A DNA stretch of 42,490 bases, taken from a virus. Taxonomy: Duplodnaviria; Caudoviricetes. The position numbers were made by a program, and so were the translations under genes. The DNA lies in the IMG/VR virus record IMGVR_UViG_3300046788_000036, positions 1-42,490 of that record, one strand, 5' to 3'. Below are positions 11,719-40,913 of this stretch, one piece after another. The notes beneath the pieces are model-generated. The model had not been told where the DNA came from and did no database searches. It saw nothing but the letters and a program-made list of their open reading frames with translations. Each line of letters opens with the position of its first letter. Positions within the stretch are counted from its first letter, which is position 1.

Positions 11719-12176
11719 CCGGGCGTCCATGAACCGAGCAAGAAAGTGGCTACCCAAAGGGTTGTCGAAATAGCCTTCACGGTAATGACCGAATAGGGCG
11801 AGTCGGACGATACGAAGCCACCCGCGCTGGAGGCTATCTCCCCCAGAGTGATGATGTCCGAGCCATCCACGTCTATTTCCAGCAACTGGTTGGCTGCCAC
11901 GATGAAGGTGTAAGTGAGTTGGACGATGGCAGGCGTAGGCAACGTCAGGATGACTGGCCCTGCCGCTCCAGCATTGCTGAATGTCCCTGTGGTCTGGGCT
12001 GCCGTCATGCTGTGGTTGGTCGTGTAGGCCGTATAGCCGACCTGAAGGCCACCGAGATAGGACGCCAGCAGCGCGGGATTGGCCGAACTGGTGACGCCGT
12101 TCTGGACAACGGGAAATTTCTCGTCGCCGTTGATGACGGGAACGAGGTCCAGTCTGGAAATGGGGATGCCGGTCAT
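11715..12176 (-). CDS. Structural / fibre-like protein
   Basis: ISRLDLV...EKFPVVQNGVT N-terminus and a beta-sandwich-like C-terminus ending GSWTPG; ATGA-coupled start. Confidence 0.65.
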   Translation of the reverse strand: MTGIPISRLDLVPVINGDEKFPVVQNGVTSSANPALLASYLGGLQVGYTAYTTNHSMTAAQTTGTFSNAGAAGPVILTLPTPAIVQLTYTFIVAANQLLEIDVDGSDIITLGEIASSAGGFVSSDSPYSVITVKAISTTLWVATFLLGSWTPG

Positions 12177-14008
12177 TGGGCTACTCTCGGGGTCCATGAA
12201 TCGCTGTTGACCGGCTCAGGCGTCCAGATGTCCGGCGTTACCGGATGAGTCTGCCAATAGCTTAGATCAAAGCGCGCACCATCTGCCGCCTCGCGGGCTG
12301 CCATTGTGACGTTGATAGTACCGACGCTACCTACATTGAACAGCGCAGTATCGGGCGCCTCGGTGGCTGCAAAGACGATGGGAGTGGCCGCCACGATGCC
12401 GAAGGATGCAAGGTCTGCCGACTCGCTCGCCGCCAGAGAAACGTTCGTCTTGGCTGAAACCGCGAGGCTTGCCGTGTCCGCTGCCTCAGTTGCTGCCAGA
12501 TTCACTCCGGTCTGGATCGAGGCGGTCAGGGCGGCCGTATCGGCGGCTTCCGTGGTTGCCAGATTGACGACGGCTGCGGGAGCGCCTGCGGTGAGATGCG
12601 CCGTGTCCGCTGCCTCTGTAGCAGCCAGCGTTACTCCGGTTTGGGCCGCGATGGCGATGGCTGCCGTATCCGCAGCTTCGGTCGCTGCAAGCGTTACACC
12701 TGTCTTGGCCGTGATGGCGAAAGCGCCTGTGTCTGCTGCCTCGGTGGTGATAAGTGTCACGCCCGTCTGGGCGGTAATGGCAAGAGCTGCAGTATCGGCG
12801 GCCTCGGTAGCAGCCAGAGTAACGGCGGTAGACGTGGTAAGAGAGGCTGTGAATGCCGCTGTATCGCCTGCTTCCGTGGCCGCAAGGCTGACGCCCGTTT
12901 TAGATGTGATGGCGATGGAGGCCGTGTCAGCGGCCTCTGTCGCCGCCAGGGTCGTGCCCGTCTGGGCAGTGATCGCAATCGCTGCCGTATCGGCCGCTTC
13001 CGTCGCTGCCAGTGCAACTGCGACATTGACGACGAATGCGCCCGTGTCCGCTGTTTCCGTGGCGGCCAGTGTTGCCCCGGTCTTGGCAGTGATGGCGATT
13101 GCGGCGGTATCGGCCGCTTCCGTGGTTGCCAGTGTGACGGCAAGACCAGTATTCGCCGTGTAAGTGATGACGATTAGCCCAGCGCCACCCGTGCCGGTAT
13201 GCGAGGAAGCGTTATAGGAACCACGGGCACCGCCTCGGCCACCACCCCCTCCGCCGTAGACTGCACCGTCCCCCGCCGTCGAGAGCGTTACGCCGGTATT
13301 GGTGTTGGTGCCCGAACCGCCGCCGCCCGAACTGGCACCGGCTGTCGCTCCGCCCGCTGTAGCCGTCCATAGCGTAGCGGCCGTACCGCTCGTGCCGGTC
13401 GTTGGTGTGACATCGCCCGTGCCGCCACCGCCACCAGCCGGTGAGCCACCATCGGCCGTGCCACCGCTGCCACCGGCTGTCGTCGCAGGATTACTCGGCG
13501 AGCCGCCGATCCCGGTCGTGCCCGCAGCACCCCCGCCGCCTGCCCCGCCCAATGACTTGCCGCTCGAAGCGCCGCTGCCGCCGTTGCGCGCGGTCGTCTG
13601 GGTATAGACAACGGTTGGCGATCCAAGATCGCTGACGACGAAATTAGCGCCGCCGTTGACACCTGAAGCATCTGCCGCCGCTGATCCGGGAATCGCATAA
13701 AATGCTCCCGAATTGGCGCTGCTGCTTCCCCATTGATTGCTGATAGTCGAGCCACTACCCCCCGCCCCCACACGGAACGCAACCGTCGTCGTGCTGGGCG
13801 TCAGCGTGCCTGACGAATAGGTCATCAGCCGATAGGCACCACCCGCACCACCGCCGCCGCCATTCGGCCCTGATCCCGTGGTTCCTATTGCCCCGGCGCC
13901 ACCGTGACCTACACCTTCAACTGTATGGCCAGTCGCAGGCACTGGAAAATCGGCCGGTACTGTCCACGGTGAACTTGTTGCGGCTAACAGGAAGACGATG
14001 GTAGCCAT
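12173..14008 (-). CDS. Gly-rich and repeat-rich virion fibre protein (611 aa)
   Basis: N-terminal GGGGG-rich domain, 14 copies of a ~21-aa LAATEAADTA repeat, C-terminal WTPE motifs. Confidence 0.75.
   Translation of the reverse strand: MATIVFLLAATSSPWTVPADFPVPATGHTVEGVGHGGAGAIGTTGSGPNGGGGGAGGAYRLMTYSSGTLTPSTTTVAFRVGAGGSGSTISNQWGSSSANSGAFYAIPGSAAADASGVNGGANFVVSDLGSPTVVYTQTTARNGGSGASSGKSLGGAGGGGAAGTTGIGGSPSNPATTAGGSGGTADGGSPAGGGGGTGDVTPTTGTSGTAATLWTATAGGATAGASSGGGGSGTNTNTGVTLSTAGDGAVYGGGGGGRGGARGSYNASSHTGTGGAGLIVITYTANTGLAVTLATTEAADTAAIAITAKTGATLAATETADTGAFVVNVAVALAATEAADTAAIAITAQTGTTLAATEAADTASIAITSKTGVSLAATEAGDTAAFTASLTTSTAVTLAATEAADTAALAITAQTGVTLITTEAADTGAFAITAKTGVTLAATEAADTAAIAIAAQTGVTLAATEAADTAHLTAGAPAAVVNLATTEAADTAALTASIQTGVNLAATEAADTASLAVSAKTNVSLAASESADLASFGIVAATPIVFAATEAPDTALFNVGSVGTINVTMAAREAADGARFDLSYWQTHPVTPDIWTPEPVNSDSWTPRVAQ
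12270..13140 (-). repeat. Coding tandem repeat, 14 x ~63 bp (VxLAATEAADTAxxxITAxTG)
   Basis: Units counted directly in the translation; codons diverge between units. Confidence 0.9.
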
Positions 14009-16879: not shown

Positions 16880-17338
16880 TTAGGCAATGTGCTTCCAATA
16901 ACGCCGCGACCGCGTGTGGCGAATGGTTGCTTCGCTTACGCCAAATCGCGCCATTAAGATCAATTTATTCTCACCGCTGGCGCGAATCTCACGCACCTGT
17001 TCGGGAGTAAGTTTAGTCTTTGAACACATAGCGCCAACTGCGGTTCTCTTACGAGCCTCGCGATCAGCAATATTCTGCATTTGTGTTCCGACTTCAAGAT
17101 GCGCCGGATTCACACAAGACGGCACATCACAACGATGGCGAACAATCTTTCCTTTTGGAATTTTTCCGCAATGGAGTTTGTAGGAAACGCGATGTGTACG
17201 CTCCGCTCGCTTTCCATCCCAGATCATTCCATATCCGTCGACAGTGAGATGACCCATCCATAACCAACAACCGCTGTTGGGTTCTGGACTTACCTTATCC
17301 ATGAATCGGTCAATTAATGGGGCAGGTCTTCCGGTCAT
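16880..17338 (-). CDS. HNH homing endonuclease (HNH_3-like) with C-terminal HTH
   Basis: SGCWLWMG...HRVSY...HRCDVPSCVNPAHL..GT..QN; AT-richer than its flanks. Confidence 0.9.
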   Translation of the reverse strand: MTGRPAPLIDRFMDKVSPEPNSGCWLWMGHLTVDGYGMIWDGKRAERTHRVSYKLHCGKIPKGKIVRHRCDVPSCVNPAHLEVGTQMQNIADREARKRTAVGAMCSKTKLTPEQVREIRASGENKLILMARFGVSEATIRHTRSRRYWKHIA

Positions 17339-23448: not shown

Positions 23449-23895
23449 TTAATCTCCTATGTGAGTCCAACTTGCCTTGCGGATAATCCGGCTGGCATTT
23501 GCTTGGGTGATGCCGAAGAGCTTGCTGATCTTCTCGTGGCTCAATCTGCCTTCGGCGGCCAGTTTGCGCATCGCAATCACATCGGCGGCCGTCAGCTTCT
23601 GCGCTGCCCTGCCTTTGCGCGCCTTATCCCGGTGATTGTCGAGATCGGTTCCAAGGAATAGATGCTGCGGATTCACACAACTCGGAACATCGCATTTGTG
23701 GCAAACATGATGTCCCGCTGGAATCAGTCCGAAATGATGTTCCCAACTCAGACGATGCGTTCCAAGCATTCGCCGAACACCATTTCGTGCGCGTATGCGG
23801 CCATAACCTTCGGCACTAGCCGCGCCCATCCAGAGCCAACAACCAGAGTTAGGTTCTGGGCTGACCCTCTCCATCATGTGCTCATAGACAGTCAT
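23449..23895 (-). CDS. HNH homing endonuclease, paralog of 16880..17338
   Basis: VSPEPNSGCWLWMG...HKCDVPSCVNPQHLFLGT..DN; ATGA overlap with the terL stop. Confidence 0.9.
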   Translation of the reverse strand: MTVYEHMMERVSPEPNSGCWLWMGAASAEGYGRIRARNGVRRMLGTHRLSWEHHFGLIPAGHHVCHKCDVPSCVNPQHLFLGTDLDNHRDKARKGRAAQKLTAADVIAMRKLAAEGRLSHEKISKLFGITQANASRIIRKASWTHIGD

Positions 23896-25376
23896 ACAAT
23901 CCCCCGAAGGCCACGCTTCAAAGGAGTTCCCGGAATCCATGCCGGAGCACGGCCCCCAACAAGAGCGCCTTGGCCAGCGAACGTGAGTACCAAGGCGTCC
24001 GCCAAGTCTGGCGAGCGACGCAATCTGGATTTCATCGAATCTTTGCTTTCGATTTTATACTGACCTGTGGAATGGTAATCATAACAAGTACTTACCAGTT
24101 CCATACGCAGTTCATCGTCTTTCGGCAATCTACAGACGCGAGTATTCAACCAATCCCTGCACATAATCCAGAGTTCGTCTCGGAGCCGGTAGGCGCCGAG
24201 GTTCATCGAGGTCGTCTCGGAGACGTTGACATCGCGGACGTTGAACTTGAGTTCTCGCAAACGGTCAGCGACGCCCGAACCGAGCCCGATGGAGTCCACC
24301 ATAATCTCTGAAGGACGGTCGACGTTCGCTTCGGCGGCGACCCAGCCGGTGACTCCCATGAGATCAAGTCCGCGCTGCGACTTGACCTCCAGGACGACAT
24401 TTCCTTGTCGCTTGCAGATAGTTGAACGATCATCGCCAAAGCGCGCCACATCGACGCCATAGACGATGGGATCTCTTGGGTTGAGTACGACATCGCGGTT
24501 CATGGCTCCGTCTACGAGGTCTGCACTGATAAGCGTCCGGGCCTCGCTGACCGGGAACTCGCCGAGGACTTTCACCCGGTACTCGTTGGAGCCTTCTCCC
24601 CACCTGTGAAGCGTGTCGGCGATGAAGTCGTTGCTCACCAGGCGATTGCCCACGCAGGACTCGTGCATGGTCGTCCAGTTGGCCCGGAGACTGTTATGGG
24701 TGTCGAAGAAGAAGCCCGAGTTGCGGGTCGGGTTGCCAATGAGGATGGTGACGCAGTTGTGGCCGGACATCGAGCCAGCGGCGGCACTGTAGACTGCTTC
24801 CGGTATCCCAGAAGCCTCGTCGAAGATCAAAAGGACGAAGCCGTCTGAATGCACTCCCTGCATGGCCTCCGGTCGGTCCATAGAGGAGGTCTTCGCTGAC
24901 ACAAATGACTCTTCGATCTTCCGGTCCAGTTCCGCTTTCAGGACGATGCGATCGGTCAGGACAACGAACAGGACACGGCAGAACTCGGGGAGTCGGCTGA
25001 ACCACTTCTTGATCTCCGGGTAGAGCGCGTCGAATAACTGTCCTGCAGCAGGGGCGGTCACCACCGTCTTCTGGGGATACCTGACCGTCTGGTGCCATAC
25101 GACCAGCATCCCGCAGGCGGCGGTCTTGCCGACTCCGTGGCCCGTCCTGACACTGATCCTTCGCTTGCCTTCCGCCACCGAGCGCATGAACTCGCGCTGC
25201 CACGACAGCAACTCGACCTTCAGGACCTCCTCGGCGAAGGCCACCGGGTCGTGCCGGTACCTGTGAACAAACGCCGTGTACTGGTCGAACATGATCCGGG
25301 CCTGCTCCTGCGCCCTTAGCTGGGCAGGACGGAGCTTTGTTTCACGGGAAACATTTGGGGTGATCGCGTCAGGCAT
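23892..25376 (-). CDS. terL: Terminase large subunit
   Basis: Walker A (TGHGVGKT), Walker B (LLIFDEASG), coupling motif GNP, RNase H-like GVDVARFGDD and SPDLADAL. Confidence 0.95.
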   Translation of the reverse strand: MPDAITPNVSRETKLRPAQLRAQEQARIMFDQYTAFVHRYRHDPVAFAEEVLKVELLSWQREFMRSVAEGKRRISVRTGHGVGKTAACGMLVVWHQTVRYPQKTVVTAPAAGQLFDALYPEIKKWFSRLPEFCRVLFVVLTDRIVLKAELDRKIEESFVSAKTSSMDRPEAMQGVHSDGFVLLIFDEASGIPEAVYSAAAGSMSGHNCVTILIGNPTRNSGFFFDTHNSLRANWTTMHESCVGNRLVSNDFIADTLHRWGEGSNEYRVKVLGEFPVSEARTLISADLVDGAMNRDVVLNPRDPIVYGVDVARFGDDRSTICKRQGNVVLEVKSQRGLDLMGVTGWVAAEANVDRPSEIMVDSIGLGSGVADRLRELKFNVRDVNVSETTSMNLGAYRLRDELWIMCRDWLNTRVCRLPKDDELRMELVSTCYDYHSTGQYKIESKDSMKSRLRRSPDLADALVLTFAGQGALVGGRAPAWIPGTPLKRGLRGIV

Positions 25377-25695
25377 TGCCCTTCGCTTCCAGCATGTCGA
25401 GAATTTCCGGGTACTTGCTCGCCAAAACCCGCATGTAATCCGACTTCTTCACCTCAACCAGCCGCGACAGATAGGTCGTCGCCTTCGCATACGCCTCGGC
25501 TCGCTCCATCGGAATGTCACTATGCCCGATGAACTGCGCCGCCACCGACAGACAGGCCATTAAGCCAATGTCGGGGTCATCGTCATGGTTCAACGCCTTC
25601 CACAGCAACTCCTTCATGTCCCGCACCCGCTTGTGCCGGGCATCAAGGTCATACTCAGCCCGCTTCTCCCGCGCCTCGCGAAGCCAGTTACGCAC
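25369..25695 (-). CDS. Hypothetical protein
   Basis: GTG start (VRNWL) inside track ORF 25369..25809; helical. Confidence 0.6.
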   Translation of the reverse strand: MRNWLREAREKRAEYDLDARHKRVRDMKELLWKALNHDDDPDIGLMACLSVAAQFIGHSDIPMERAEAYAKATTYLSRLVEVKKSDYMRVLASKYPEILDMLEAKGNA

Positions 25696-25876
25696 GAGCC
25701 CGCTTCCTCTCCCGGTACGCCTTCGCCCTCGCCGCCCCGTTCTCATACTTCGGCGGACGACCACCCTTTCGTGACGGCAGGGGTTTCGTGACAGGTTTCG
25801 TGACGGCACGCAGGCTTTCGGTAACAGCCGCCCGATCAGGCCGCTTCACGAAGTAGTCGTCGTACAACTTCCCCAC
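25688..25876 (-). CDS. Small basic protein (GGRPPKY...AARAKAYRERK)
   Basis: Track ORF; basic motif typical of small DNA-binding proteins. Confidence 0.6.
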   Translation of the reverse strand: MGKLYDDYFVKRPDRAAVTESLRAVTKPVTKPLPSRKGGRPPKYENGAARAKAYRERKRARA

Positions 25877-26067
25877 TAGACCGCTTCCACCGATGGCTCA
25901 GACACAGCTTCCGACGGCTTTTCCTCAACCGGATCAACAGCTTGAGGCGCAACCGGTGCCAAAGCCGCCCTCATCTCCGCCAGTGCCGCCTTCACCCTCA
26001 ACCAGTCATGATCCGCCACCCCACGGTCAATCCAGTCCAGGTGCTGCCTAACCTCTTGATCCGTCAT
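25876..26067 (-). CDS. Hypothetical protein
   Basis: Track ORF, first gene after the terS intergenic gap. Confidence 0.55.
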   Translation of the reverse strand: MTDQEVRQHLDWIDRGVADHDWLRVKAALAEMRAALAPVAPQAVDPVEEKPSEAVSEPSVEAV

Positions 26068-26195
26068 CCATTTTCCCCATTTTTCCTACAATTTTTCTAG
26101 CCGGTGGAATGCGGGGGTGCTGCATCGGCAGCCGCCCCCTCTGGTGGTCACCGCATCCGGGGGGCTCGATCGCTGCCCCTGCCCTGCTATGCGGC

Positions 26196-26208
26196 TAAGC
26201 CATTGATA
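26196..26208 (-). promoter_or_regulatory. IHF-binding consensus
   Basis: Minus strand TATCAATGGCTTA matches WATCAANNNNTTR exactly; 26 bp from the dif-like site. Confidence 0.55.
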
Positions 26209-26234
26209 TCGCTACGTTCTTCGTTCCTCGTTGG

Positions 26235-26262
26235 TTATCGCATAACGTACATTATGACAAAT
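26235..26262 (+). other. dif-like XerC/XerD recombination site
   Basis: TTATCGCATAA-CGTACA-TTATGACAAAT has 11-6-11 architecture and 20/28 identity to E. coli dif (GGTGCGCATAATGTATATTATGTTAAAT). Confidence 0.8.
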
Positions 26263-26776
26263 CATCATGAACGTCTGGGCAACCTGACTGCTCCTCGACG
26301 TCTGTGACACTGGATTGAGGAGACGCGCTTGCCTCTCTCTGCTCTGTTCTCTTCCCTTGCACTGCCTTGCCTACCTCTTCGGTGATGCGTTGGTCAGTGT
26401 ACTGCATTAGTGCGTCTAGGTGCTGTTGAGTTACGTCTGCGTTGAGGTTCAGGCTTCTCTCTACCAGGTAGCCTTGGGCCTTTAGAATCAGCTCTGTTGC
26501 CTTTATGGCTGGTCCGTATTGCTGGTCTACTGATGCTTGCTCTGCAATATGAGCGGCGTTGTTGATCAGCGTCTCTCTGCTGATGTCGAGGCGTTCCTGG
26601 AGGCGGCGGCGATGTGCAGCGATCTCCTTTGACACTTTAGCATTGCTTATCAGCCTTGACCCTTGGACGTGAGCACTTGGCTGGGCGTAACCGGCTTTGA
26701 TTGCAGCTTGAGTGCCGTTACCTGTCTTGACGTATTCACGGGCGAATTTGTCTTGTCTGATCGACAGGTCAGACAT
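26252..26776 (-). CDS. terS: Terminase small subunit
   Basis: QDKFAREYVKTGNGTQAAIKAGY...GSRLISN (Terminase_2-type HTH). Confidence 0.88.
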   Translation of the reverse strand: MSDLSIRQDKFAREYVKTGNGTQAAIKAGYAQPSAHVQGSRLISNAKVSKEIAAHRRRLQERLDISRETLINNAAHIAEQASVDQQYGPAIKATELILKAQGYLVERSLNLNADVTQQHLDALMQYTDQRITEEVGKAVQGKRTEQREASASPQSSVTDVEEQSGCPDVHDDLS

Positions 26777-27061: not shown

Positions 27062-27090
27062 ACAATGACGAGGTAATATCTAGGCGTCAA
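27062..27090 (-). promoter_or_regulatory. Putative sigma70-type promoter of the packaging/late operon
   Basis: Minus strand TTGACG-17 bp-CATTGT, followed by a GGTTCAT/ATGAACC hairpin (27012-27041) that covers the RBS. Confidence 0.5.
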
Positions 27091-29239: not shown

Positions 29240-30118
29240 CTAGAACCTGTGTTGCGCGTTCTTCGTAGGTTCAAAAGTAGGTCCGCCATGGCAACGCACG
29301 TACTCGATGGCCGCACGTTCGGCCTCTAGGTAACGCTCGTCCAGAGGCGACGGACGTTCGATCTGACGCACGATCTCCTCCGACGCAGGCAGTCCCGACT
29401 CGTCCCTCTTCTGCCAAAGGGCTATTAAATCGCCTAGGTTGGCCGGAACGGGCAGATCAAGCGTTTGCCTGATAATGTCTGCCGTATTCAGCCGCTCGCG
29501 TCTGGTGAGCCCGTAATGAGCCCACCACAGGTCCATCCTGCGTAGACGTGGGTTCCATTTGTTGCCCTTGCTGGCAAACTGGATGGGCAACATGGGTAGC
29601 CCTACCCCCGTGATGAAACTGTACGTCTCTGATATTGCAGTGTCACTGAACCAGAACGGGTAACGCTCGTCGAGCAGGTGCCCGACCATATCGAACCACC
29701 TTCGTCCAATGGCAAACAACGTGGGTTGCCCCGGATTGGCCTGATCCTGCAAGCCGGCGATCTTCAGGTCTGCGTGCGTCCAGTCGTGGTTCCTCCATGC
29801 CCAGTCCAGGCAATGGTCCCAGTTCGGCGTGGCTATGATGCCGTCGTCGGGCAGGGTCAGCATCACCTCGGCGTCCGTAAGGGCAGCGCAGCGGTTCCAG
29901 CATGCGCCTACGCCTGTCGGACGCACGTCAACGCTGATACGTGCGTTGTGCTGGATATGCGCCAGAACGCCGGTTGGCCAGCATTCTACGTCGTCCTCGT
30001 CGCATGCTACCACGAACTCAAGCATGTTCTCCCCCGTAGACAACATGCGCAGCGACTCGATGATGCCGATCACGTTGCGTGGCTTGCCTCGGGTCGCGAT
30101 AATCGCTGCAATCTTCAT
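29240..30118 (-). CDS. GT-A fold (GT2-like) glycosyltransferase
   Basis: MKIAAIIATRG, VVACDEDD, WNRCA..., LTLPDD, and FWFSDT. Confidence 0.75.
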   Translation of the reverse strand: MKIAAIIATRGKPRNVIGIIESLRMLSTGENMLEFVVACDEDDVECWPTGVLAHIQHNARISVDVRPTGVGACWNRCAALTDAEVMLTLPDDGIIATPNWDHCLDWAWRNHDWTHADLKIAGLQDQANPGQPTLFAIGRRWFDMVGHLLDERYPFWFSDTAISETYSFITGVGLPMLPIQFASKGNKWNPRLRRMDLWWAHYGLTRRERLNTADIIRQTLDLPVPANLGDLIALWQKRDESGLPASEEIVRQIERPSPLDERYLEAERAAIEYVRCHGGPTFEPTKNAQHRF

Positions 30119-30384
30119 TTGATGTTATAAAGTTGAACGGCTTCAGTGGCGGTATAGATGCGCGTGGGGTGTGGCCGTTCGCGATCTTCCGCCATCAGAT
30201 TCTGGCTCTCGACGGGTCTCGGATGCTTCCTGCCGTCCCACAGCACCATGTAATAAGCTGCTGGCTGCTGGTAGAAATCGAGGACCTTGCGGACCGTTCC
30301 AAAGCGCCGCCCCCAATGGCCAATCCGGGGATTGATTAAGGCCGCATCCGAGATCATTACGCGATCACCCTTCTTAAATACCAC
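30115..30384 (-). CDS. Small SH3/KOW-like hypothetical protein
   Basis: FKKGDRV...GTVRKV...VLWDG; GTG start after GGAGG. Confidence 0.55.
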   Translation of the reverse strand: MVFKKGDRVMISDAALINPRIGHWGRRFGTVRKVLDFYQQPAAYYMVLWDGRKHPRPVESQNLMAEDRERPHPTRIYTATEAVQLYNIK

Positions 30385-31060
30385 GGCTCTGCCCTCCATC
30401 GACAACGATATTGGCCCCGTTGACCAGACTCGCTCCCTCGCTGCACAGGAACGCCACCACGTTAGCGACCTCCTCAGGCGTGCCCATCCTGCCTAATGGC
30501 AGTTCCGCCCCGCTCGGAGGCTTGCCTACGTCGATCTCGCCGGGTGCCACTGAATTGAACGTGATGCCGTCACGCGCCAGGTAGCTCTGCGTTGCCAAGC
30601 TCTTCATCAACGCCGTCTGTGCAGCTTTCGCCATCACGAACCAGGGACGTGCGTTGCCATCCTTGCCTCCGAATATGCTGGTGATGGTGACGACGCGACC
30701 CCATTTGCGCTCACGCATGCCGGGCAATGCACGCTGCGTAAGATAAGCCGCAGCCATCGCGTTCTTCTGCATGACCTCGCGCCATGTATCGAAGGGTGTT
30801 TCCTCGATGCTATCCGATCCCCATCGGCCGCCGCCACCCGCGTTGTTGATGAGGATGTCGATTGGCGGAACCTCGTCCATCAGCCTTTCCAGCGTCCAAT
30901 GTTCCAGCATGTCGGCACCAATCCAATGATTGCCGCACTGAAGTTGCGCTGGCCGCTCGCGAGAAGACGTGATGACAAAATGCTGCTGCCTGCATAAGGC
31001 GCGGGCGATAGCCAAGCCGATACCCCTAGTGCTTCCAGTAACGAGTGCGGTTCTAGCCAC
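30374..31060 (-). CDS. Short-chain dehydrogenase/reductase (SDR)
   Basis: TGSTRGIG, ILINNAG and GRMGTPEEVA...VDGG motifs. The catalytic YxxxK position reads FVMAK. Confidence 0.9.
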   Translation of the reverse strand: MARTALVTGSTRGIGLAIARALCRQQHFVITSSRERPAQLQCGNHWIGADMLEHWTLERLMDEVPPIDILINNAGGGGRWGSDSIEETPFDTWREVMQKNAMAAAYLTQRALPGMRERKWGRVVTITSIFGGKDGNARPWFVMAKAAQTALMKSLATQSYLARDGITFNSVAPGEIDVGKPPSGAELPLGRMGTPEEVANVVAFLCSEGASLVNGANIVVDGGQSRGI

Positions 31061-31577
31061 CGAACGGAATCCCGCCGCCAAGCGGTTCGCCCGCATATTT
31101 GTCGAACCGGATGTAATGCGGCGTTCTGGCCTCATAAGCCATCTTCACGCAGTCCGCGACACATCCCCATTCAAATGGTTCGCAGACCGTCATGTTGCGA
31201 AGCGTCCTCATCAGTCCAAGGTCCTCCGTCCCGTAGTGCGTCGGACCATCGCGCCACATCGACGGACCGCCTAGTCCAAGGATCGTCACCGGAAGGTTCG
31301 GCAGGCAAATGCAGACCTTGATGAGTTCCCAGCCGCGCATCAGGTGGGCGCACTGGCCGTAGGCAAATACCTGCTTGCCCGACGATGCGAGACCGCCGGC
31401 CAGAGCCATCATGTTCTGCTCGGCCACGCCCACGTTGACGACTCGTGCAGGAAACTCCTCGCGGATGGTGTCGAGCCCCCATGCGCCATTGTCGTTGGTC
31501 AGCACGACGATGCTCGAATCGGCGCGCATCAGTTCGTGGACGACGGCGAATACGGCATCGCGGAAATCACGTTTCAT
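31053..31577 (-). CDS. Transketolase-like pyrimidine-binding subunit (C-terminal domain absent)
   Basis: NVGVAEQNMMALAGGLA, DGPTHYGTED, PHYIRF; only 174 aa. Confidence 0.9.
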   Translation of the reverse strand: MKRDFRDAVFAVVHELMRADSSIVVLTNDNGAWGLDTIREEFPARVVNVGVAEQNMMALAGGLASSGKQVFAYGQCAHLMRGWELIKVCICLPNLPVTILGLGGPSMWRDGPTHYGTEDLGLMRTLRNMTVCEPFEWGCVADCVKMAYEARTPHYIRFDKYAGEPLGGGIPFGG

Positions 31578-31786
31578 GTACCGTTCTCGCGAATATCTTT
31601 TAATTTGACCTCTTCAGAAGCGGCCCAAACCTCATGCTCCATCTCGCAAGATACGCGCATATAGGCTTCACTGTTCGGCATCGTAGGATATGTATTCACG
31701 AGGCGCGCGACGCGACGATCTCGCTCCGCCATGCGCTCGCTAATTTGCTTACATTGTTCATAAGTCATGCCACCAAATCCAAACAT
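31574..31786 (-). CDS. Hypothetical protein inserted in the metabolic operon
   Basis: TAATG overlap at 31786; helical, 70 aa. Confidence 0.5.
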   Translation of the reverse strand: MFGFGGMTYEQCKQISERMAERDRRVARLVNTYPTMPNSEAYMRVSCEMEHEVWAASEEVKLKDIRENGT

Positions 31787-32343
31787 TATGTCACCTCTGG
31801 CAATCCTTCCTCTTCGACTTCCTTGGGAATGCAGTCGGCATAACGAGCCCACATCAGCGTGCGGGGGAGCGATGGAATGAGACCGCAATGGTAGTGGGTG
31901 TTGTCGGCCAGCCAAGCCGTTCCCCGAGGGCCATAGATTGGCTCAAGCAGGTCGTCGGGTCGCATATGGAGTTGAGCTGAATCAAGCGGTACGTCCGTTC
32001 CAAAGATGAACAGCGCCACGATTTTGGAACCGCCCCGATCACGATGCAGGCCATGCAGTCCGGGGAAGTAAGGCGTGTCTTTATTCGTGTAGAAGGCATT
32101 GAGACTCCATAGGTGTGCAGGGCAATCGAAGTATTCGCTGACCTTGGGAATGAAACCCTTGGCGTAGTCGAGGAAGTGAGGGGCGGCCATCACGTCCTCC
32201 ATCGAATTGCATTCCATGCCGTTGCGTGGTCGCGCCTTGATGTGACCGGGATAGCGCGGGCATTGGTCGAGATGGTCGGTGACCTGCTTGATCCATGGCA
32301 CGATGCCGAGTCGCATGAAGCCGTTGCGCCGCAGTTCGCTCAT
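31786..32343 (-). CDS. 2OG-Fe(II) dioxygenase superfamily protein (PhyH-like)
   Basis: HxD in LHRD, distal His in HYHCG, and Arg in RTLMWARY; DSBH-like strand pattern. Confidence 0.65.
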   Translation of the reverse strand: MSELRRNGFMRLGIVPWIKQVTDHLDQCPRYPGHIKARPRNGMECNSMEDVMAAPHFLDYAKGFIPKVSEYFDCPAHLWSLNAFYTNKDTPYFPGLHGLHRDRGGSKIVALFIFGTDVPLDSAQLHMRPDDLLEPIYGPRGTAWLADNTHYHCGLIPSLPRTLMWARYADCIPKEVEEEGLPEVT

Positions 32344-33026
32344 GCCAGCGCCTTTCGTGCTTCAGCGATCTCATCGCCCTTCGGCACCTGATGGTGCCAG
32401 GCAGGGTTGCCTTCCATGAAGCAAATTCCCTTGCCCTTAACGGTGCGAGCGACAATACAGCGTGGATGATATTGTTTATCCGTCAGCCATGCCATGATTT
32501 CTGCGATCTCGTGGCCGGGCACATCGCATGCCCCCCATCCAAAAGCATAGAATCTCTCAGAGATCAGATGGACGTTCAGAACATCTCGCGTGAAGTTCGC
32601 ACACGCCTGCCGATTGTCATCAACAATGGCCACCAAGTTGGAAAGCCCGTGATGTGCGGCAAACATCACCGCTTCCCAGATCGCCCCTTCGTGTAGCTCG
32701 GCATCGCCCAGCACACAGAATACCCGTCCCGGCTTGCCGTCGAGTTTGTTGGCGAGCGCCATGCCCGCAGCCATGCCCAAGCCCATCCCGAGCGAGCCGC
32801 TGCACTTGTAGGGCCAGCCCGGCCACATCGGGTAGTCGGGGTCCTGCCACAGCGCATCCAGCGTCAGATGGCCGTGCGTCTTGCTGAGAACCAGCTTGTC
32901 CTCGGGCTTCATCACTTCATGCAGGGCAACGGCGATCTCCACCCATGACAGGGCGCTTGCCACATGGCCCTTGCCGGCTGCCAATGCGGTTTCGAGGATG
33001 TAGCGGCGAATCTCCTGCGGGGTCAT
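32340..33026 (-). CDS. Transketolase N-terminal (ThDP-binding) subunit
   Basis: GHVASALS, LSKTHGH, GSLGMGLG, GDAELHEGAIWEA...DDN, TVKGKG...WHH. Start reassigned to MTPQE. Confidence 0.92.
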   Translation of the reverse strand: MTPQEIRRYILETALAAGKGHVASALSWVEIAVALHEVMKPEDKLVLSKTHGHLTLDALWQDPDYPMWPGWPYKCSGSLGMGLGMAAGMALANKLDGKPGRVFCVLGDAELHEGAIWEAVMFAAHHGLSNLVAIVDDNRQACANFTRDVLNVHLISERFYAFGWGACDVPGHEIAEIMAWLTDKQYHPRCIVARTVKGKGICFMEGNPAWHHQVPKGDEIAEARKALA

Positions 33027-33106
33027 CGGGGCCGACTCCTGATGGCGAGGTAGAGCATGACCGCGACAATCCCAAGCATCAGCCAGTAGAACCATTCGGG
33101 GATCAT
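33023..33106 (-). CDS. Small TM peptide (MIPEWFYWLMLGIVAVMLYLAIRSRPR)
   Basis: ATGA overlaps at both ends. Confidence 0.55.
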   Translation of the reverse strand: MIPEWFYWLMLGIVAVMLYLAIRSRPR

Positions 33107-33312
33107 GGCGCACCCTCTTTGACCAATACCCAAATGCCGAGGCCAGTAATATCGACCGCAGCGCCGACAATGCGATGGCCCACCCGACCGCCACGATACA
33201 ATTCCCACAGCTTGCCACCGCCTTCCCCGACATATTCCCAACCGAGGGCCTTCATCTTCCGCTGTTCGCGACGAACAGCTAAACGGCGGCGTGTCATGTC
33301 AGAAACTCTCAC
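33103..33312 (-). CDS. Hypothetical protein
   Basis: GTGA overlap with the methyltransferase stop. Confidence 0.55.
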   Translation of the reverse strand: MRVSDMTRRRLAVRREQRKMKALGWEYVGEGGGKLWELYRGGRVGHRIVGAAVDITGLGIWVLVKEGAP

Positions 33313-34223
33313 GGGGCACCCTCCAGGGCATCGACGCGGGCTTGCTCGCTCGTTGCCTGGACGGGCGACCACTGGAGTTGCGAGTAACCTTCCAGCAAAA
33401 GGCTGCCAAAGCCGGTGCGATGCTGGCGCAGAGGCACAACTTCATTGGCAAAGCCGCGCCAGAAGCCCCGTGCCTCGTGGACCTTGATCGCCGTGTAATC
33501 GACGAGATTGGCGGGATCGTACCATTCCAGCATCGGCTCGATGTGAAAACACATCGCGGGCTGGCTGCGGCGCACGAACTCCAGGAAAGGCCGCCACCGG
33601 GTTCCGGTCTGCTCCAGCGCACCAATCGTCAGCACCGCTGAATTGGGCATAAATGGCCGGAAAGTATGAGGCTCGAAGAAATCGAATCGACCGCCGCCGA
33701 TGTTGGGGAAATGGCTGCGCAGCCGGTCGATAATCCTGAACGATGCCTCGGCCCAGTCATAGCCATGGATGTGTTTGCCGGGAAACTCCTGGGCGAGAAA
33801 TACAAGGTTGTGCCCGGAACCGCAGCCGAACTCGTAGATGTGGTCGAAGCCCGAGAGATAGCGCCTTGCGAACCAGCCCCGGAAAACCCTGTACCAGTTG
33901 GCCTCGAACATCGGGTCGGCAGGTTCGATGAATTGTCCGTCGAGCCGCAGCACCTTGGCGGGGCGCAGGTATTTAGGCTCCAGCGCCTTGAGATCGTCGG
34001 TGCGGCGGAAGTCCTCGAAATTCTCCTGCCAGCCTTTCTGCCAACGTCCGGTATTCTCGCCGGCAATCGAGAACGAGCGACCCTCCAGCCTGTGCAGCAG
34101 GTCGATCACGACGCTGTTGGATGCGTCATTGTCCAGTGTCTTGTAGCGCCAGTCGTGCGCCTTGATCTCGGCCTCGGTCTTGATGTCGAGTGGGCCGCCG
34201 AACATCTTTTCCCACTTCATCAT
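33309..34223 (-). CDS. Class I SAM-dependent methyltransferase (small-molecule/sugar type)
   Basis: Motif I IYEFGCGSGHNL, GYDW, FDFF, GALEQ. Lacks the DNA-methylase catalytic motifs DPPY/NPPY/PC. Confidence 0.85.
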   Translation of the reverse strand: MMKWEKMFGGPLDIKTEAEIKAHDWRYKTLDNDASNSVVIDLLHRLEGRSFSIAGENTGRWQKGWQENFEDFRRTDDLKALEPKYLRPAKVLRLDGQFIEPADPMFEANWYRVFRGWFARRYLSGFDHIYEFGCGSGHNLVFLAQEFPGKHIHGYDWAEASFRIIDRLRSHFPNIGGGRFDFFEPHTFRPFMPNSAVLTIGALEQTGTRWRPFLEFVRRSQPAMCFHIEPMLEWYDPANLVDYTAIKVHEARGFWRGFANEVVPLRQHRTGFGSLLLEGYSQLQWSPVQATSEQARVDALEGAP

Positions 34224-34540
34224 TGTCCCATCCTTATCTTCTCGATCGCCAGTTCCCGCGTCCAACCCTTGCGGGTCAGGCTGCGGTATCTGTTGCGTTC
34301 CCTGGTACCGTTCGGCCATGGTAACTGGTTCTCGACGTTGAACCGTGGCGGCAACCGATGCGAACGGCCAGCCTTCTGCGCCAGCTTGACGGCAGCGATG
34401 GTGGCAGCGCGGAATGTCGAGTCAGCCCATTTGGCCCGCATTGTCTCGGCGCTGACCAGCCGGCGGCGTTCCCGCTTCATCGAGCGCAGCTTTTCTTCCA
34501 GAATGGGGATCTGGAATTGCAGGGTTTCCAGTCGGCTCAT
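34220..34540 (-). CDS. Basic hypothetical protein
   Basis: ATGA-coupled start at MSRLE. Confidence 0.55.
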   Translation of the reverse strand: MSRLETLQFQIPILEEKLRSMKRERRRLVSAETMRAKWADSTFRAATIAAVKLAQKAGRSHRLPPRFNVENQLPWPNGTRERNRYRSLTRKGWTRELAIEKIRMGQ

Positions 34541-34761: not shown

Positions 34762-34958
34762 GGCACGCGCTTCCTGCTGGCCTCGATAAACGCATACCAG
34801 TCCCTTAGGACCGGCGTGGCGTTCTGGATCTGCTTGGCCGTGCGTACCGCCTCGGTTGCCTGGGTGATCGACCCGGTGCGGTGGTAGGGGTTGCCGGTTT
34901 TGTTGCCGGGCCACTTCGTTACCGGACGGCGCTTGAAGAGGCTTTTCATGTTAGACAT
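34758..34958 (-). CDS. Hypothetical protein
   Basis: Track ORF coupled to its neighbours. Confidence 0.55.
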   Translation of the reverse strand: MSNMKSLFKRRPVTKWPGNKTGNPYHRTGSITQATEAVRTAKQIQNATPVLRDWYAFIEASRKRVP

Positions 34959-35433
34959 CGATCAATTCCTTCGGGACCATGCAGCCCGGCTCGCCCACCT
35001 TCGGCCCCCAGAAGCCATTCCAGACCTTGCTGGATAGCCTCTGCCGCCACAGGTTCAGTTCCTTGTCCTTGAGGCTTTCACGCACCAGCGGGGCTTTCTG
35101 GGCCTCTGGATGGCCCTTCCAATCACGGCACGCCTTCTCCCAGACCTTGCCCCAGTTCAGCCATTGCGTCCCCTTGGCTTCGTAATACCCCTTAAATGCT
35201 TGCAGAAAGGAATCGGGGTCTTTGCCTTGCCTTTCGCAATAGGCTCTTTGGGCTTGGGTGGGCTGCCAGTCGGGGCCAAGGCGGGAACGCCGATTCGTTC
35301 CATTTCCTTTAGCTTTTCCATCAATTCCCGACTTCTTACCGTTGAGATTATCGGTGCCCACCCCCACGGAGGCGAAGAGGTCGCCGTTGGCTTGCTCATT
35401 GTGAATCTCCTGTCCGCATTGGGTGCATTTCAT
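34951..35433 (-). CDS. Putative minimal replication protein (DnaT-like / replication-initiator C-terminal domain)
   Basis: RLGPDWQP...FKGYY...W..W...W pattern resembles the C-terminal domain of phage replication initiators; CxxC at the N-terminus. Confidence 0.5.
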   Translation of the reverse strand: MKCTQCGQEIHNEQANGDLFASVGVGTDNLNGKKSGIDGKAKGNGTNRRSRLGPDWQPTQAQRAYCERQGKDPDSFLQAFKGYYEAKGTQWLNWGKVWEKACRDWKGHPEAQKAPLVRESLKDKELNLWRQRLSSKVWNGFWGPKVGEPGCMVPKELIDV

Positions 35434-38217: not shown

Positions 38218-38653
38218 AAGCATCATGAAGGGCCACGCCGAGATCATGCGGACCGGCCTCAAGCATGGCGGCGACATCGCGCTCGGCAAGGTGGTGGACG
38301 AGATCAACCGCCTGATCGACCTCAAGGGCCTGTCGGGTGACTGGCACGCGGGCTATCGCAAGGCGCTGATGGACGTGCGGGCCTTCATCCTGGCGAGCCT
38401 CAAGCCACCGACTGACGATGAGGAAGCCTACCACACCAGCACCAGCCCGGCCGAGGAGTACGAGCGCGTCGAGCGGATGCGGGCCGACAACGCACGCAAG
38501 CTGCAAGCAGATTTCGAGCGTGCAATGGCCCCCGACTACTCCCGCAAGGGCATCTTCCAGACTCACAACTGCGCCTATTGCCGGGATGGTGAACTGCCGT
38601 GCAGGCAGGGTGCGGTGAACCGCTGCGACAACCCGAGGGCACGCAATGATTGA
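38204..38653 (+). CDS. Hypothetical protein with C-terminal Cys cluster
   Basis: GGGAG RBS; HNCAYC...C...C. Confidence 0.65.
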   Translation: MDNLESIMKGHAEIMRTGLKHGGDIALGKVVDEINRLIDLKGLSGDWHAGYRKALMDVRAFILASLKPPTDDEEAYHTSTSPAEEYERVERMRADNARKLQADFERAMAPDYSRKGIFQTHNCAYCRDGELPCRQGAVNRCDNPRARND

Positions 38654-39368
38654 CTTCAAGGCTTTGGCCGCCCCTTTCAATCCATCGGCTGTTTCATGGC
38701 GCGTGGGGTCCGTCTCTGGCGAGCGGGGTATGGCCTTGGCCTATCTCGATGCCAGGGACGTGGCCGACCGGCTGGACGGCGTGTGCGGACCTTCCAACTG
38801 GGGATGCCGCTACAGCCACGTCGGCGCTATCACAGTCTGCGAGATCGGTATTTGCACCTTCATGTTCCATCCCGAAAACGCTGCTTTGCAGGGCAACTGG
38901 GTCTGGAAAGCAGACGGGGCCGGGCAGTCCGACATCGAGGCCGAGAAGGGCGCGCTGTCCGATGCCTTCAAGCGGGCCGCCGTCCGCTGGGGTATCGGCA
39001 GGTATCTCTACCACCTGCCAAGCCCTTGGGTCGAGATCGAGAAGCGCGGCAAGACCTCAGTCATTGCCAAGCACGAATATGCGAGGCTGGAAAAGATCCT
39101 CGCACAGGCAGGGACGCCCGCCCCCCAAGGGCCAACCCTGCCCCCTGCCGACCCCGATGTGCTGGATGCCGCTACCCGCTGGTTTCGCACTCAGAAGGAC
39201 TACCTGGAGAAGTGCCAGAGCGTGGAAGCCATCGCCCAGTGGGCCGAACGCGAGAACCGCGCCCTGGGCAAGCTGAAGCTCCAGCACCGCGACCTGTGGG
39301 AAATCTTGTCGGAAACCCAGCAGACCATGCTGGATAGCGTCGGGTCGTTCAGTAGGCCACCGGCATGA
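38646..39368 (+). CDS. Rad52/Rad22-family single-strand annealing protein (Sak-like)
   Basis: LAYLDARDVADRLD...KGALSDAFKRAAVRWGIGRYLY. Confidence 0.92.
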   Translation: MIDFKALAAPFNPSAVSWRVGSVSGERGMALAYLDARDVADRLDGVCGPSNWGCRYSHVGAITVCEIGICTFMFHPENAALQGNWVWKADGAGQSDIEAEKGALSDAFKRAAVRWGIGRYLYHLPSPWVEIEKRGKTSVIAKHEYARLEKILAQAGTPAPQGPTLPPADPDVLDAATRWFRTQKDYLEKCQSVEAIAQWAERENRALGKLKLQHRDLWEILSETQQTMLDSVGSFSRPPA

Positions 39369-39694
39369 TCCGCCTCATCCTCACCCCCGCCAAGACGCCG
39401 GGTAAGTTTATTGCGCGGATGGACGATAACGATCCGCGAGTCCCTGAGGAAGTTTGTGTCTCCCACCAGCCTATGGTTGACGGTGCGCGGGTGCTGCTAA
39501 AACACGGCTTCGACCCCGAGACGCTAGCCACATGCCGCCACGAGGGCAAAGCCTTCGATTCCTTCGTGCCGCGCCGTTTGGGCGACTGGGCGCAAGATTC
39601 TTACTCTGAGGGTGATAAGCGTGGGCTAAGGCTGGAGAAGTGGCGTCCCCGTCCAGATAGCGCATTGCCGATGCGCGGGACGATCAAGGAATGA
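39365..39694 (+). CDS. Hypothetical protein
   Basis: Track ORF with ATGA coupling. Confidence 0.65.
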   Translation: MIRLILTPAKTPGKFIARMDDNDPRVPEEVCVSHQPMVDGARVLLKHGFDPETLATCRHEGKAFDSFVPRRLGDWAQDSYSEGDKRGLRLEKWRPRPDSALPMRGTIKE

Positions 39695-40098
39695 CTTCGG
39701 CCACCTACTGGCTACGGACACCACAAGCCCGGCAAAACGCACGGGAGGCCATCCTTGTGGCTCCTGAGACGTATGTGTGCCGGATTGAGGATGAACCGCG
39801 CACCCCGGAGCAGAACGACCATGCCCATGCTGCGCTGACCGACATATCCCGTCAATTGCAGTGGCACGGCAAGAAGCTGAATGTGCTGACGTGGAAGCGG
39901 CTCACCATGGCCGCCTTCCTGCGCGAGATAGGGCACCAACCGGAACTAATTCCCGCGTTGGATGGCAATGGCTTCGATGTGATTTTCGAGCATTCATCGA
40001 AGCTCGGCAAGAAGAAGTTCTCAGCATGGCTGGAATGGATCTATGCCTTCGGGACGCAGAACAAGGTGGTGTTCAGGGACAGGCATCATGCGTCGTAG
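39691..40098 (+). CDS. ninB: NinB/Orf-like recombination protein
   Basis: RTPEQND..HA.LTDISRQLQWHG...WK...SSKL.KK.FS..LE.IYAFG. Confidence 0.88.
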   Translation: MTSATYWLRTPQARQNAREAILVAPETYVCRIEDEPRTPEQNDHAHAALTDISRQLQWHGKKLNVLTWKRLTMAAFLREIGHQPELIPALDGNGFDVIFEHSSKLGKKKFSAWLEWIYAFGTQNKVVFRDRHHAS

Positions 40099-40144
40099 CC
40101 TGTCCGCTCGCCAGCGCATGAAGATCTTCGAGGCTCGGCGATGA
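40088..40144 (+). pseudogene. Orphan 5' fragment of an HNH gene (MRRSLSARQRMKIFEARR*)
   Basis: Resembles the N-terminus of the gene type at 40563 (MRREFSTKIKAAAFQRA); ends at the ATG of the inserted endonuclease. Confidence 0.5.
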
Positions 40145-40566
40145 ACAAGTCAAAACTTCCTGAATACCGGCACTGGATCAATATGATTTCCAGATGTGAG
40201 AATCCCAATGCGCCATGGTTCGAGATTTACGGCGGCCGAGGCGTCAAGATCTGCAAGCCGTGGCGCGAGTCCTTCAGCAACTTCTATCAGGATATGGGCC
40301 CGCGCCCATCGCCAAAGCACTCAGTTGATCGGATTGATTCTGACGGCAACTACGAACCATCCAATTGCCGATGGGCGACACCCTCAGCGCAAGGTCGCAA
40401 TAAGCGGACCAATCATATTGTGATAGTGAATGGCGTAAAAATGACTCTTGCGGACGCCGCCGATCTTGCGCCCGTTGGCTATAACACTTTCCTTTATCGC
40501 CTCAAGCGTGGATGGTCATTGGACGATGCCATATCGCTGCCGAGGCAAAAGGGCATCCGGCCATGA
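40141..40566 (+). CDS. HNH-type homing endonuclease
   Basis: W.NMISRC...YGGRGVKIC..W..F..F..DMG.RP....SVDRID.DGNYEPSNCRWAT...Q..N. Confidence 0.88.
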   Translation: MNKSKLPEYRHWINMISRCENPNAPWFEIYGGRGVKICKPWRESFSNFYQDMGPRPSPKHSVDRIDSDGNYEPSNCRWATPSAQGRNKRTNHIVIVNGVKMTLADAADLAPVGYNTFLYRLKRGWSLDDAISLPRQKGIRP

Positions 40567-40913
40567 GGCGCGAGTTCTCCACCAAGATCAAAGCCGCCGC
40601 TTTCCAACGCGCCAACTTACATTGCGAGAAATGCACCGCCCCTCTCTATGCAGGCAAGTTCGCTTACGATCACGTCATTGCCGACGCTATGGGTGGCAAA
40701 CCGACGCTAGACAACTGCGAGGTGCTTTGCGTTGCGTGCCATTCGGAAAAGACGTGCGAACTTGATATTCCCCGCATCGCCAAGGCCAAGCGCCAGTCTG
40801 CCAGGCATCATGGAGCCAAGCAGTCGAAGTGGCCCAGGTTGAAATGGAAGCGGAAGGTCAGCGGCGAGACGGTGTTGCGGGCCACAAATCCCCCTTCCAA
40901 AGGTGGCACATGA
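40563..40913 (+). CDS. HNH endonuclease (Zn-binding, nin-region type)
   Basis: CEKC...YDHVIA...GG...LDNCEVLCVACH..KT. Confidence 0.88.
   Translation: MRREFSTKIKAAAFQRANLHCEKCTAPLYAGKFAYDHVIADAMGGKPTLDNCEVLCVACHSEKTCELDIPRIAKAKRQSARHHGAKQSKWPRLKWKRKVSGETVLRATNPPSKGGT

Follow-up and report, generated by a model that had tools for sequence, protein, structure and literature searches.

A dif-like XerCD site between the terminase genes of a podophage-like genome: host resolvase as a candidate for joining the genome ends

To our knowledge, the way in which genome ends are closed or processed is poorly defined for most groups of phages that have short direct terminal repeats and no recombinase. The window analyzed here (the whole stretch of DNA, 42,490 nucleotides) raises this question because a sequence resembling the XerCD site dif lies between its two terminase genes: does the phage use it to enter the host chromosome, or does host XerCD act there on phage DNA only? 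A Xer-type site is unexpected for tailed phages, and its role is directly testable in E. coli K-12. A sequence-only reading of the same DNA had offered two answers, integration at host dif or resolution of the phage's own circular multimers by host XerCD.

At 42.4 kb, with ends that share a 92-bp overlap at 97.8% identity, the window represents a complete podophage-like genome assembled as a circle (CheckV 100%), and its DNA is present in soil and rhizosphere metagenome runs (24/24 among the matches listed). The minus strand carries the genes for capsid, scaffold, portal, TerL, TerS and ejection proteins, as assigned by PHROGs. The sequence-only reading had recognized no integrase, resolvase or ParA gene, and we reached the same result: a six-frame search with PF00589, PF00239 and PF13614 (integrase, resolvase and ParA, respectively) at E<=1 matched nothing in the window, these searches having matched the control genomes in 13-14/14, and no recombinase was found among 76 ORFs by PHROGs or 54 ORFs by Pfam. 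The ORFs scanned with PHROGs and Pfam also contained no recognizable Rep, replication initiator, helicase, primase or polymerase, and ParA was absent from all six frames.

Several other genes of the window deserve mention. A minus-strand cluster at 29240-34319 encodes a glycosyltransferase, an SDR reductase (PF13561), a transketolase-like pair (PF02779, PF00456), a methyltransferase-like ORF and a 185-aa ORF without assignment; it is possibly a sugar pathway for modification of DNA or surface. PHROGs identified four HNH endonuclease genes (16880-17338, 23449-23940, 40141-40566 and 40512-40913), two of which directly follow the capsid and terL genes. The 611-aa product of 12173-14008 (minus strand) has many LAATEAADTA-type repeats and no PHROG match, and is likely a virion fibre. 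A 160-aa ORF at 34951-35433 belongs to no family.

The dif-like site and its conservation

The features on which the argument turns are as follows.

23892..25376, minus strand: terL, terminase large subunit, 494 aa (phrog_2)
25688..26067, minus strand: two small ORFs of 63 and 62 aa, between the dif-like site and terL
26107..26167, minus strand: conserved non-coding C-run/G-run block, 61 bp, with a C6...G5 core at 26164-26135
26196-26208, minus strand: IHF-consensus box TATCAATGGCTTA, an exact match, 26 bp from the dif-like site
26235..26245, plus strand: XerC-type arm TTATCGCATAA, 9-11/11 bases kept in six relatives
26246..26251, plus strand: 6-bp spacer CGTACA, predicted strand-exchange region
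26252..26262, plus strand: XerD-type arm TTATGACAAAT, overlapping the stop and last codons of terS
26252..26776, minus strand: terS, terminase small subunit, 174 aa (PF03592, E 3.5e-19; phrog_51)
38646-39368, plus strand: Erf/Rad52-like annealing protein (matches to phrog_1097, PF04098, phrog_72 and PF05772 span this gene and the next, 38646..40098)
39691-40098, plus strand: NinB/Orf, on the same four-family basis

The description of positions 26235-26262 as dif-like, with an 11-6-11 layout and a CATAA/TTATG palindrome, was upheld. The sequence TTATCGCATAA CGTACA TTATGACAAAT is identical to dif of E. coli MG1655 (NC_000913.3) at 20/28 positions (7/11 in the XerC arm, 4/6 in the spacer and 9/11 in the XerD arm), and its two 11-bp arms with an inner dyad around a 6-bp centre constitute a dif-type layout. 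A single copy of the core CATAA-N6-TTATG is present in the window; shuffled sequences contained a mean of 0.01, with a match in 1/100. Judged by its sequence, this is very likely a real XerCD-type site. As had also been pointed out, the terS stop codon TAA lies inside the XerD arm, where it forms the inner three bases (TTA). Among relatives, the distance from the terS stop to the site is 0, 4, 30, 30 or 71 bp, and because of this variation we consider the overlap incidental; its use as a switch was rejected, as it is not conserved.

A TerS search yielded nine close viral loci and seven metagenome loci, one of which ends at terS, leaving 15 informative relatives. The scan for a 28-mer at the 3' end of terS that the sequence-only reading had suggested found an intact site directly after terS in 11 of these 15, some of them near-duplicates, so that the distinct 28-mers number seven. 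In three others (L005, L006 and L384) the site is inverted, its XerD arm being good and its XerC arm decayed, while L386 lacks the site altogether. In six comparisons the arms keep 9-11/11 and 7-11/11 bases and the 28-bp flanks 3-17/28. The spacers of the close clade take six forms in seven sites (CGTACA, TGTGCA, TGTACA, CATGCA, ACTCCA and CCCACA), all six ending in CA. Inverted sites were seen at L005:2079, L006:256, L004:44, L384:842 and L194:63; that of L194 is intact, those of L004-6 and L384 have the degenerate XerC arm, and in L005 terS reads through the site.

In the wider set, an exact dif-pattern scan of IMG/VR gave at least 121 loci, 80 of them with full flanks. Among the matches listed, 35/80 have a terL of the window's TerL family 151-1277 bp away (seven TerL clusters at 90%, four at 70%), and in all 35 a reading along the late strand meets the XerD arm before the XerC arm, a polarity count that, like the contig-end count given below, comes from related contigs and is not independent; a few of the 80 loci are not tailed phages. 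The GenBank phage C72C1 has the window's order of terS, IHF box, site, C-run and terL, and no annotated integrase. When contigs were instead sampled by TerL (79, of which 27 were dropped for short flanks), the site was found in 3/52 family contigs, or 3/61 with a longer flank. The dif mimic is thus an optional addition in this TerL family. Its absence or decay in 4/15 close relatives, and likewise across most of the family at large, is what a chance sequence, or a relic of some past exchange with no present role, would leave. We regard this explanation as highly improbable: the arms are conserved where the flanks diverge, and the site recurs at an equal position in several distinct lineages, set against the chance expectation of 0.01.

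Host dif, the spacer and the search for integrated copies

The arms and the spacer of the site relate differently to bacterial chromosomes. A phage contig (L194) with arms identical to the window's is binned in a Reyranella MAG (G001), the class of which, Alphaproteobacteria, has the dif pattern in 168/301 genomes. Among the 150 class matches listed, of 181, the spacers are mostly TATATA, TGTATA or TTTATA, and CGTACA occurs in none. Within Reyranellaceae, 102/121 genomes have a dif-pattern match, and among the matches listed the spacer is TATATA in 97/105 and CGTACA in none, a few ending in ACA or GCA. The family's dif reads TTATCGTATAA TATATA TTATGACAAAT in 21/30 loci, to which the window is identical at 21/22 arm positions and 3/6 spacer positions, the mismatches to TATATA, which affect positions 1, 2 and 5, being close to the two cut sites. 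One Reyranellaceae chromosome (G338, locus L433) has both arms identical to those of the window (22/22), as does G241, a genome of the class sample for which the family is not given. An arm variant typical of Reyranellaceae, CGTATAA, is found in the relative L381. From the arm identity, the binning of L194 and the L381 variant, Reyranellaceae is a likely host of the phage. DNA similarity to Reyranellaceae (74% identity for the SDR gene and 77% for the annealing-protein gene) was not counted as evidence of host, as no control family was compared. The proposal that the CGTACA core would predict the host must be turned around, since that core is absent from the 150 and 105 chromosomal matches listed and it is the arms that are predictive.

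Were the site used as in IMEXs, host XerCD would insert the phage at host dif, which would part terS from terL and shut down the late genes. The window has no integrase, its arms match host dif, and a few Reyranellaceae spacers do end in ACA or GCA as phage spacers can. Moreover, the longer family records show an integrase in 0/8 with the site and 5/22 without it, numbers too few for significance (30 records, three others having been left out for want of a TerL match). Which dif is open to an IMEX depends on homology of the overlap, according to the portion available of 10.64898/2026.06.12.731946, and the spacer mismatch at positions 1, 2 and 5 is therefore unfavorable. On its own, the mismatch would be compatible with integration, because gokushovirus dif motifs vary in the spacer and yet integrate (PMC7062461, available in part).

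The searches for integrated copies all gave negative results, with power limited by the host being predicted rather than certain. Prophages bounded by dif copies, with terS and terL at their ends, had been proposed as a check; the 39 loci returned by a GTDB scan with a TerL alignment did not exceed 60% identity, and no dif copies bounded any of them. In Reyranellaceae, TerL matched in 84/121 genomes and capsid in 21/130, and among the matches listed these lay away from the dif positions; a search with the window DNA likewise showed no prophage where dif was listed. In none of 15 chromosomal dif regions, chosen because the spacer was odd, the site doubled or the arms phage-like, did terS or terL lie alongside, so that hybrid spacers (host TAT with phage ACA or GCA) were rejected as integration scars; DNA comparison of these 15 regions with the phage loci gave a single match, which was itself a 27-bp site. 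Contigs spanning the site continue from terS into the phage module, and the assembled contigs of eight runs contained neither phage-host joints nor ends.

Two integrase-bearing temperate enterobacterial phages bear on the same point. ZF40 and yong1 have their own integrase approximately 20 kb away and, at the same place as in the window, a similar but degenerate dif-like site:

JQ177065, 23872-23908: degenerate dif-like site of ZF40, just before terL
MT135176, 21735-21767: degenerate dif-like site of yong1, just before terL

Together with the 3/6 spacer match to the likely host family, the six spacer variants and the lack of any dif-bounded prophage or junction in the searches above, this leads us to consider integration at host dif quite improbable. 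By the criteria applied, the site is not an IMEX attachment site: the phage does have no integrase of its own, but the overlap is not compatible with the dif of the predicted host family and no integrated copy at dif was found in these searches of limited power. The suggestion that integration would itself silence the late operon is unsupported; the putative late promoter proposed at 27062-27090 failed a sigma-70 consensus scan. A dif-bearing phage, we caution, need not be temperate. Host-type arms combined with a private, drifting spacer are instead the pattern that recombination of the phage site with itself predicts.

Some dif-like sequences met during these searches fall outside the terminase module. 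Sites with non-host spacers and an IHF-like box at L364:9999-10026 (G310:C30) and L365:9999-10026 (G279:C1), second dif-pattern matches of two alphaproteobacterial genomes, were set aside because they lie in P4-type integrase islands with restriction or caspase cargo; the other dif match of G279, with spacer TATATA, is 2.6 Mb away. The alphaproteobacterial genomes G157 and G274 have four dif-pattern sites each, with varied spacers, which are possibly pdif-like modules. A search of GenBank phages with the Reyranella dif gave AT-rich matches that are likely due to chance.

Terminal repeats and the proposed role of host XerCD

The position of the site offers a different explanation. Among GenBank TerL relatives for which a host is named, phiM5 is the closest (58% TerL identity by tblastn). 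It has an annotated 357-bp direct terminal repeat that covers the 3' part of terS (phrog_2538), an IHF-like box and a C-run/G-run element (C9...G5) ending 13 bp before the end of the repeat. This phage has an integrase and no dif, and no other TerL relative with a mapped repeat was seen. The window site lies in the interval homologous to this repeat. The sequence-only reading missed this homology to a mapped terminal repeat. The C-run/G-run block is near-identical in the window, L005, L007, L013 and L014 and is followed by an A/T tract; its C6...G5 element equals that of phiM5 in length and lies 70-100 bp past the XerC arm. We predict from this sequence that the block is a terminus signal, with one end of the repeat near 26122, and that the window site is repeated at both genome ends. 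The block had no Rfam match and no structured RNA was found there, and a single-stranded DNA hairpin as in CTX attP was discarded, since 26100-26270 folds at a z of only -1.5. The X4 and X5 unitig at ~26122/26141-26256, two- to threefold deeper than the adjoining ones, was not counted, because strain variants pile up and contig depth is no measure of copy number. Among the IMG/VR matches listed, 18/80 have a contig end no more than 400 bp from the site (6.7 expected), 11 on one side and seven on the other.

Cultured phages provide a precedent. In Hena1 (MN732867), EdH4 (MK327930) and vB_PpS_SYP (OQ183418), a complete dif site lies within exact terminal repeats, which are 519, 459 and 351 bp long, respectively. 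Hena1 and EdH4 belong to the Vequintavirinae, generally regarded as strictly lytic. The sites of Hena1 and EdH4 are identical to E. coli dif at 26/28 positions, including 22/22 in the arms, so that both differences are in the spacer. The repeat is annotated as such only in Hena1, and the dif site is unannotated in the stretches examined of all three. These phages come from BLAST lists with 5, 304 and 276 records, a minority of which were examined for termini, and they are an existence proof rather than a measure of frequency. They raise the broader proposal that many tailed phages with no relation to one another, among them lytic ones, have each acquired in the terminal repeats a host dif mimic whose spacer is private, the host resolvase serving as a gene-free 'Cre' that circularizes the genome on entry and the spacer barring the chromosome. 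We put this generalization forward tentatively, its chances falling a little short of even.

For the window phage we propose that, as in phiM5, the terminase would leave a direct terminal repeat, which would span the 3' end of terS, the dif-like site and the C-run/G-run block. XerC and XerD would bind each end copy of the site, and as the two copies would share one spacer they could exchange strands with each other, with the mismatch to chromosomal dif disfavoring integration. By recombination of the end copies the linear DNA would, once injected, become a monomer circle, and the same site would also resolve circular dimers. We favor circularization because the site is conserved, combines host arms with another spacer, sits at the interval of the phiM5 repeat and has the cultured precedent, and we hold the claim that host XerCD recombines the two end copies, with XerC and XerD activity predicted, to be evenly balanced between right and wrong. 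An inverted site, as in some relatives, would be compatible with end recombination, as it would still form direct repeats when present at two ends. Against it stands the observation that TerL relatives of the window mostly have no site (3/52) and that 17/22 dif-less family records are also without integrase. That many relatives do without the site may be accounted for by the phage annealing protein, which is likely a back-up route to circularization; the Erf/Rad52-like protein and NinB/Orf could constitute a homologous-recombination route able to make the dif-like site dispensable.

Recombination at dif normally needs FtsK or accessory proteins, as described in the sections available of PMC5357621. 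In the proposed scheme XerD might be activated by FtsK, by IHF-bent DNA or by a phage factor. No XerD activator was recognized near the site by comparison of the small ORFs with Pfam, PHROG and the Atlas or by a KOPS scan. The 63- and 62-aa ORFs belong to no Pfam or PHROG family and had only unnamed or sub-threshold Atlas matches, so that these comparisons gave no lead to a Xer activator among the small ORFs beside the site. The KOPS-like octamer GGGNAGGG occurs three times on the plus strand of the window and five times on the minus; the nearest copy (26177-26184) points away from the site and was not seen in the aligned relatives, which leaves FtsK loading toward the site unsupported.

The exact match to the IHF consensus 26 bp from the site was confirmed, as claimed for this locus; alone it is not significant, one such box being found in 44/100 shuffles of the window. 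One or two IHF boxes (<=1 mismatch) are near the site in 8/9 sequences, and IHF-like boxes are also present in phiM5 and MW202496, which are dif-less. Upstream of terL an exact consensus was found in 14/52 family contigs and in 2/52 control windows, these being coding DNA and hence of different composition. Since 14/52 contigs have the box and 3/52 the site, the box goes with the packaging region, and it likely belongs to a genome-end or packaging module rather than being Xer-specific.

Such flanks nevertheless figure in a second explanation, close to the multimer resolution of the sequence-only reading: as at plasmid cer and psi, host XerCD would convert circular dimers, formed in replication or in a plasmid-like carrier state, to monomers, with IHF-bent flanks setting the direction and the end position being secondary. 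One site per genome with its own spacer and no recombinase is in keeping with this, as are the IHF-like boxes on both sides of the site in L008, L009, L380 and L381, an annealing protein that could create dimers, and the use of accessory DNA by plasmid sites (PMC5357621, in the portion available). We consider it unlikely nonetheless, as there is no ParA and no recognized Rep, IHF boxes occur without dif, and a resolution site could sit anywhere, yet this one recurs at the terS-terL interval and in terminal repeats. A search of plasmids gave no informative match. The earlier proposal is close to our preferred reading in that XerCD would act on the phage's own DNA, and differs in that we prefer joining of the ends.

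Still less probable, in our estimation, is binding without crossover, in which XerC and XerD, with IHF, would shape or protect the genome end, aid cutting by the terminase, or stall FtsK or nucleases. It would explain strong arms, a free spacer and the packaging-module position equally well, and the intact XerD arm beside a decayed XerC arm in L004-6 and L384 suits it. The 6-bp spacing and both arms are, however, kept in most sites, and the spacers are non-random, all six ending in CA, which fits a constraint on cleavage or exchange. End joining, multimer resolution and binding alone have in common that in each host Xer would act on phage DNA alone.

If recombination of the end copies were correct, Xer would be exploited in a third mode, beside plasmid resolution and integration; a near-universal bacterial enzyme would gain a new use, and xerC and xerD would become host factors for lytic phages. 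A dif mimic could then mark, at sequence level, where genomes end in metagenomic contigs, and the dif arms, not the spacer, would be the signal for host prediction.

Comparison with known systems

Use of Xer by plasmids, filamentous phages, double jelly-roll viruses and microviruses is treated in PMC5357621, PMC12715192, PMC7062461, PMC9226527, PMC8026635, 10.1101/633727 and 10.64898/2026.06.12.731946, all available in part. The portions available of these papers contained no description of a dif site in tailed-phage termini, nor did full-text searches, with most subscription journals outside their coverage, list a paper on one; the part available of PMC10783043 mentions neither XerC nor dif.

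With the alphaproteobacterial (Reyranellaceae-type) chromosomal dif the window site shares the 11-6-11 layout and 21-22/22 arm positions; it differs in its variable spacer (3/6), in having no KOPS aimed at it and in the IHF-like box beside it. The IMEXs (CTXphi, VGJphi, TLCphi, double jelly-roll viruses and gokushoviruses; PMC5357621, PMC12715192, PMC7062461 and 10.64898/2026.06.12.731946, as far as available) likewise combine the absence of an integrase with a dif-like site for host XerCD. They are, however, small non-tailed elements found integrated at dif, whereas the window is a 42-kb tailed phage for which no dif prophage was found and the spacer is not matched to the predicted host. Comparisons of the two small ORFs with Pfam, PHROG and the Atlas recognized no XafT/XafV-like gene. 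The cer site of ColE1 and psi of pSC101 resemble the phage site as predicted here in self-recombination by host XerCD, in having their own centre and in the accessory DNA beside the core. They need ~180 bp with sites for PepA and ArgR or ArcA on a circular plasmid (PMC5357621, in the text available), whereas the accessory elements scored in the window were IHF-like boxes and its predicted substrate is linear.

Hena1, EdH4 and vB_PpS_SYP share with the window host-type arms, a changed spacer and a place inside the repeat, the last being predicted for the window; they are much larger, unrelated phages of Gammaproteobacteria, and the function of the site in them, too, is putative.

In phage P1, Cre acting at loxP cyclizes the terminally redundant virion DNA. 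Packaging of P1 starts at pac, and it is a Cre+ strain that cyclizes the DNA (PMC5534112, available in part). The likeness lies in a site for a tyrosine recombinase beside the origin of packaging and in self-recombination between its two copies in the virion DNA, as we predict for the window phage. The differences are that the phage described here has no recombinase and its site mimics host dif, that a short fixed terminal repeat is predicted in place of the headful redundancy of P1, and that there is no partition system. By this analogy the window phage may work like P1, although with no recombinase of its own it is not a member of the lox/Cre type.
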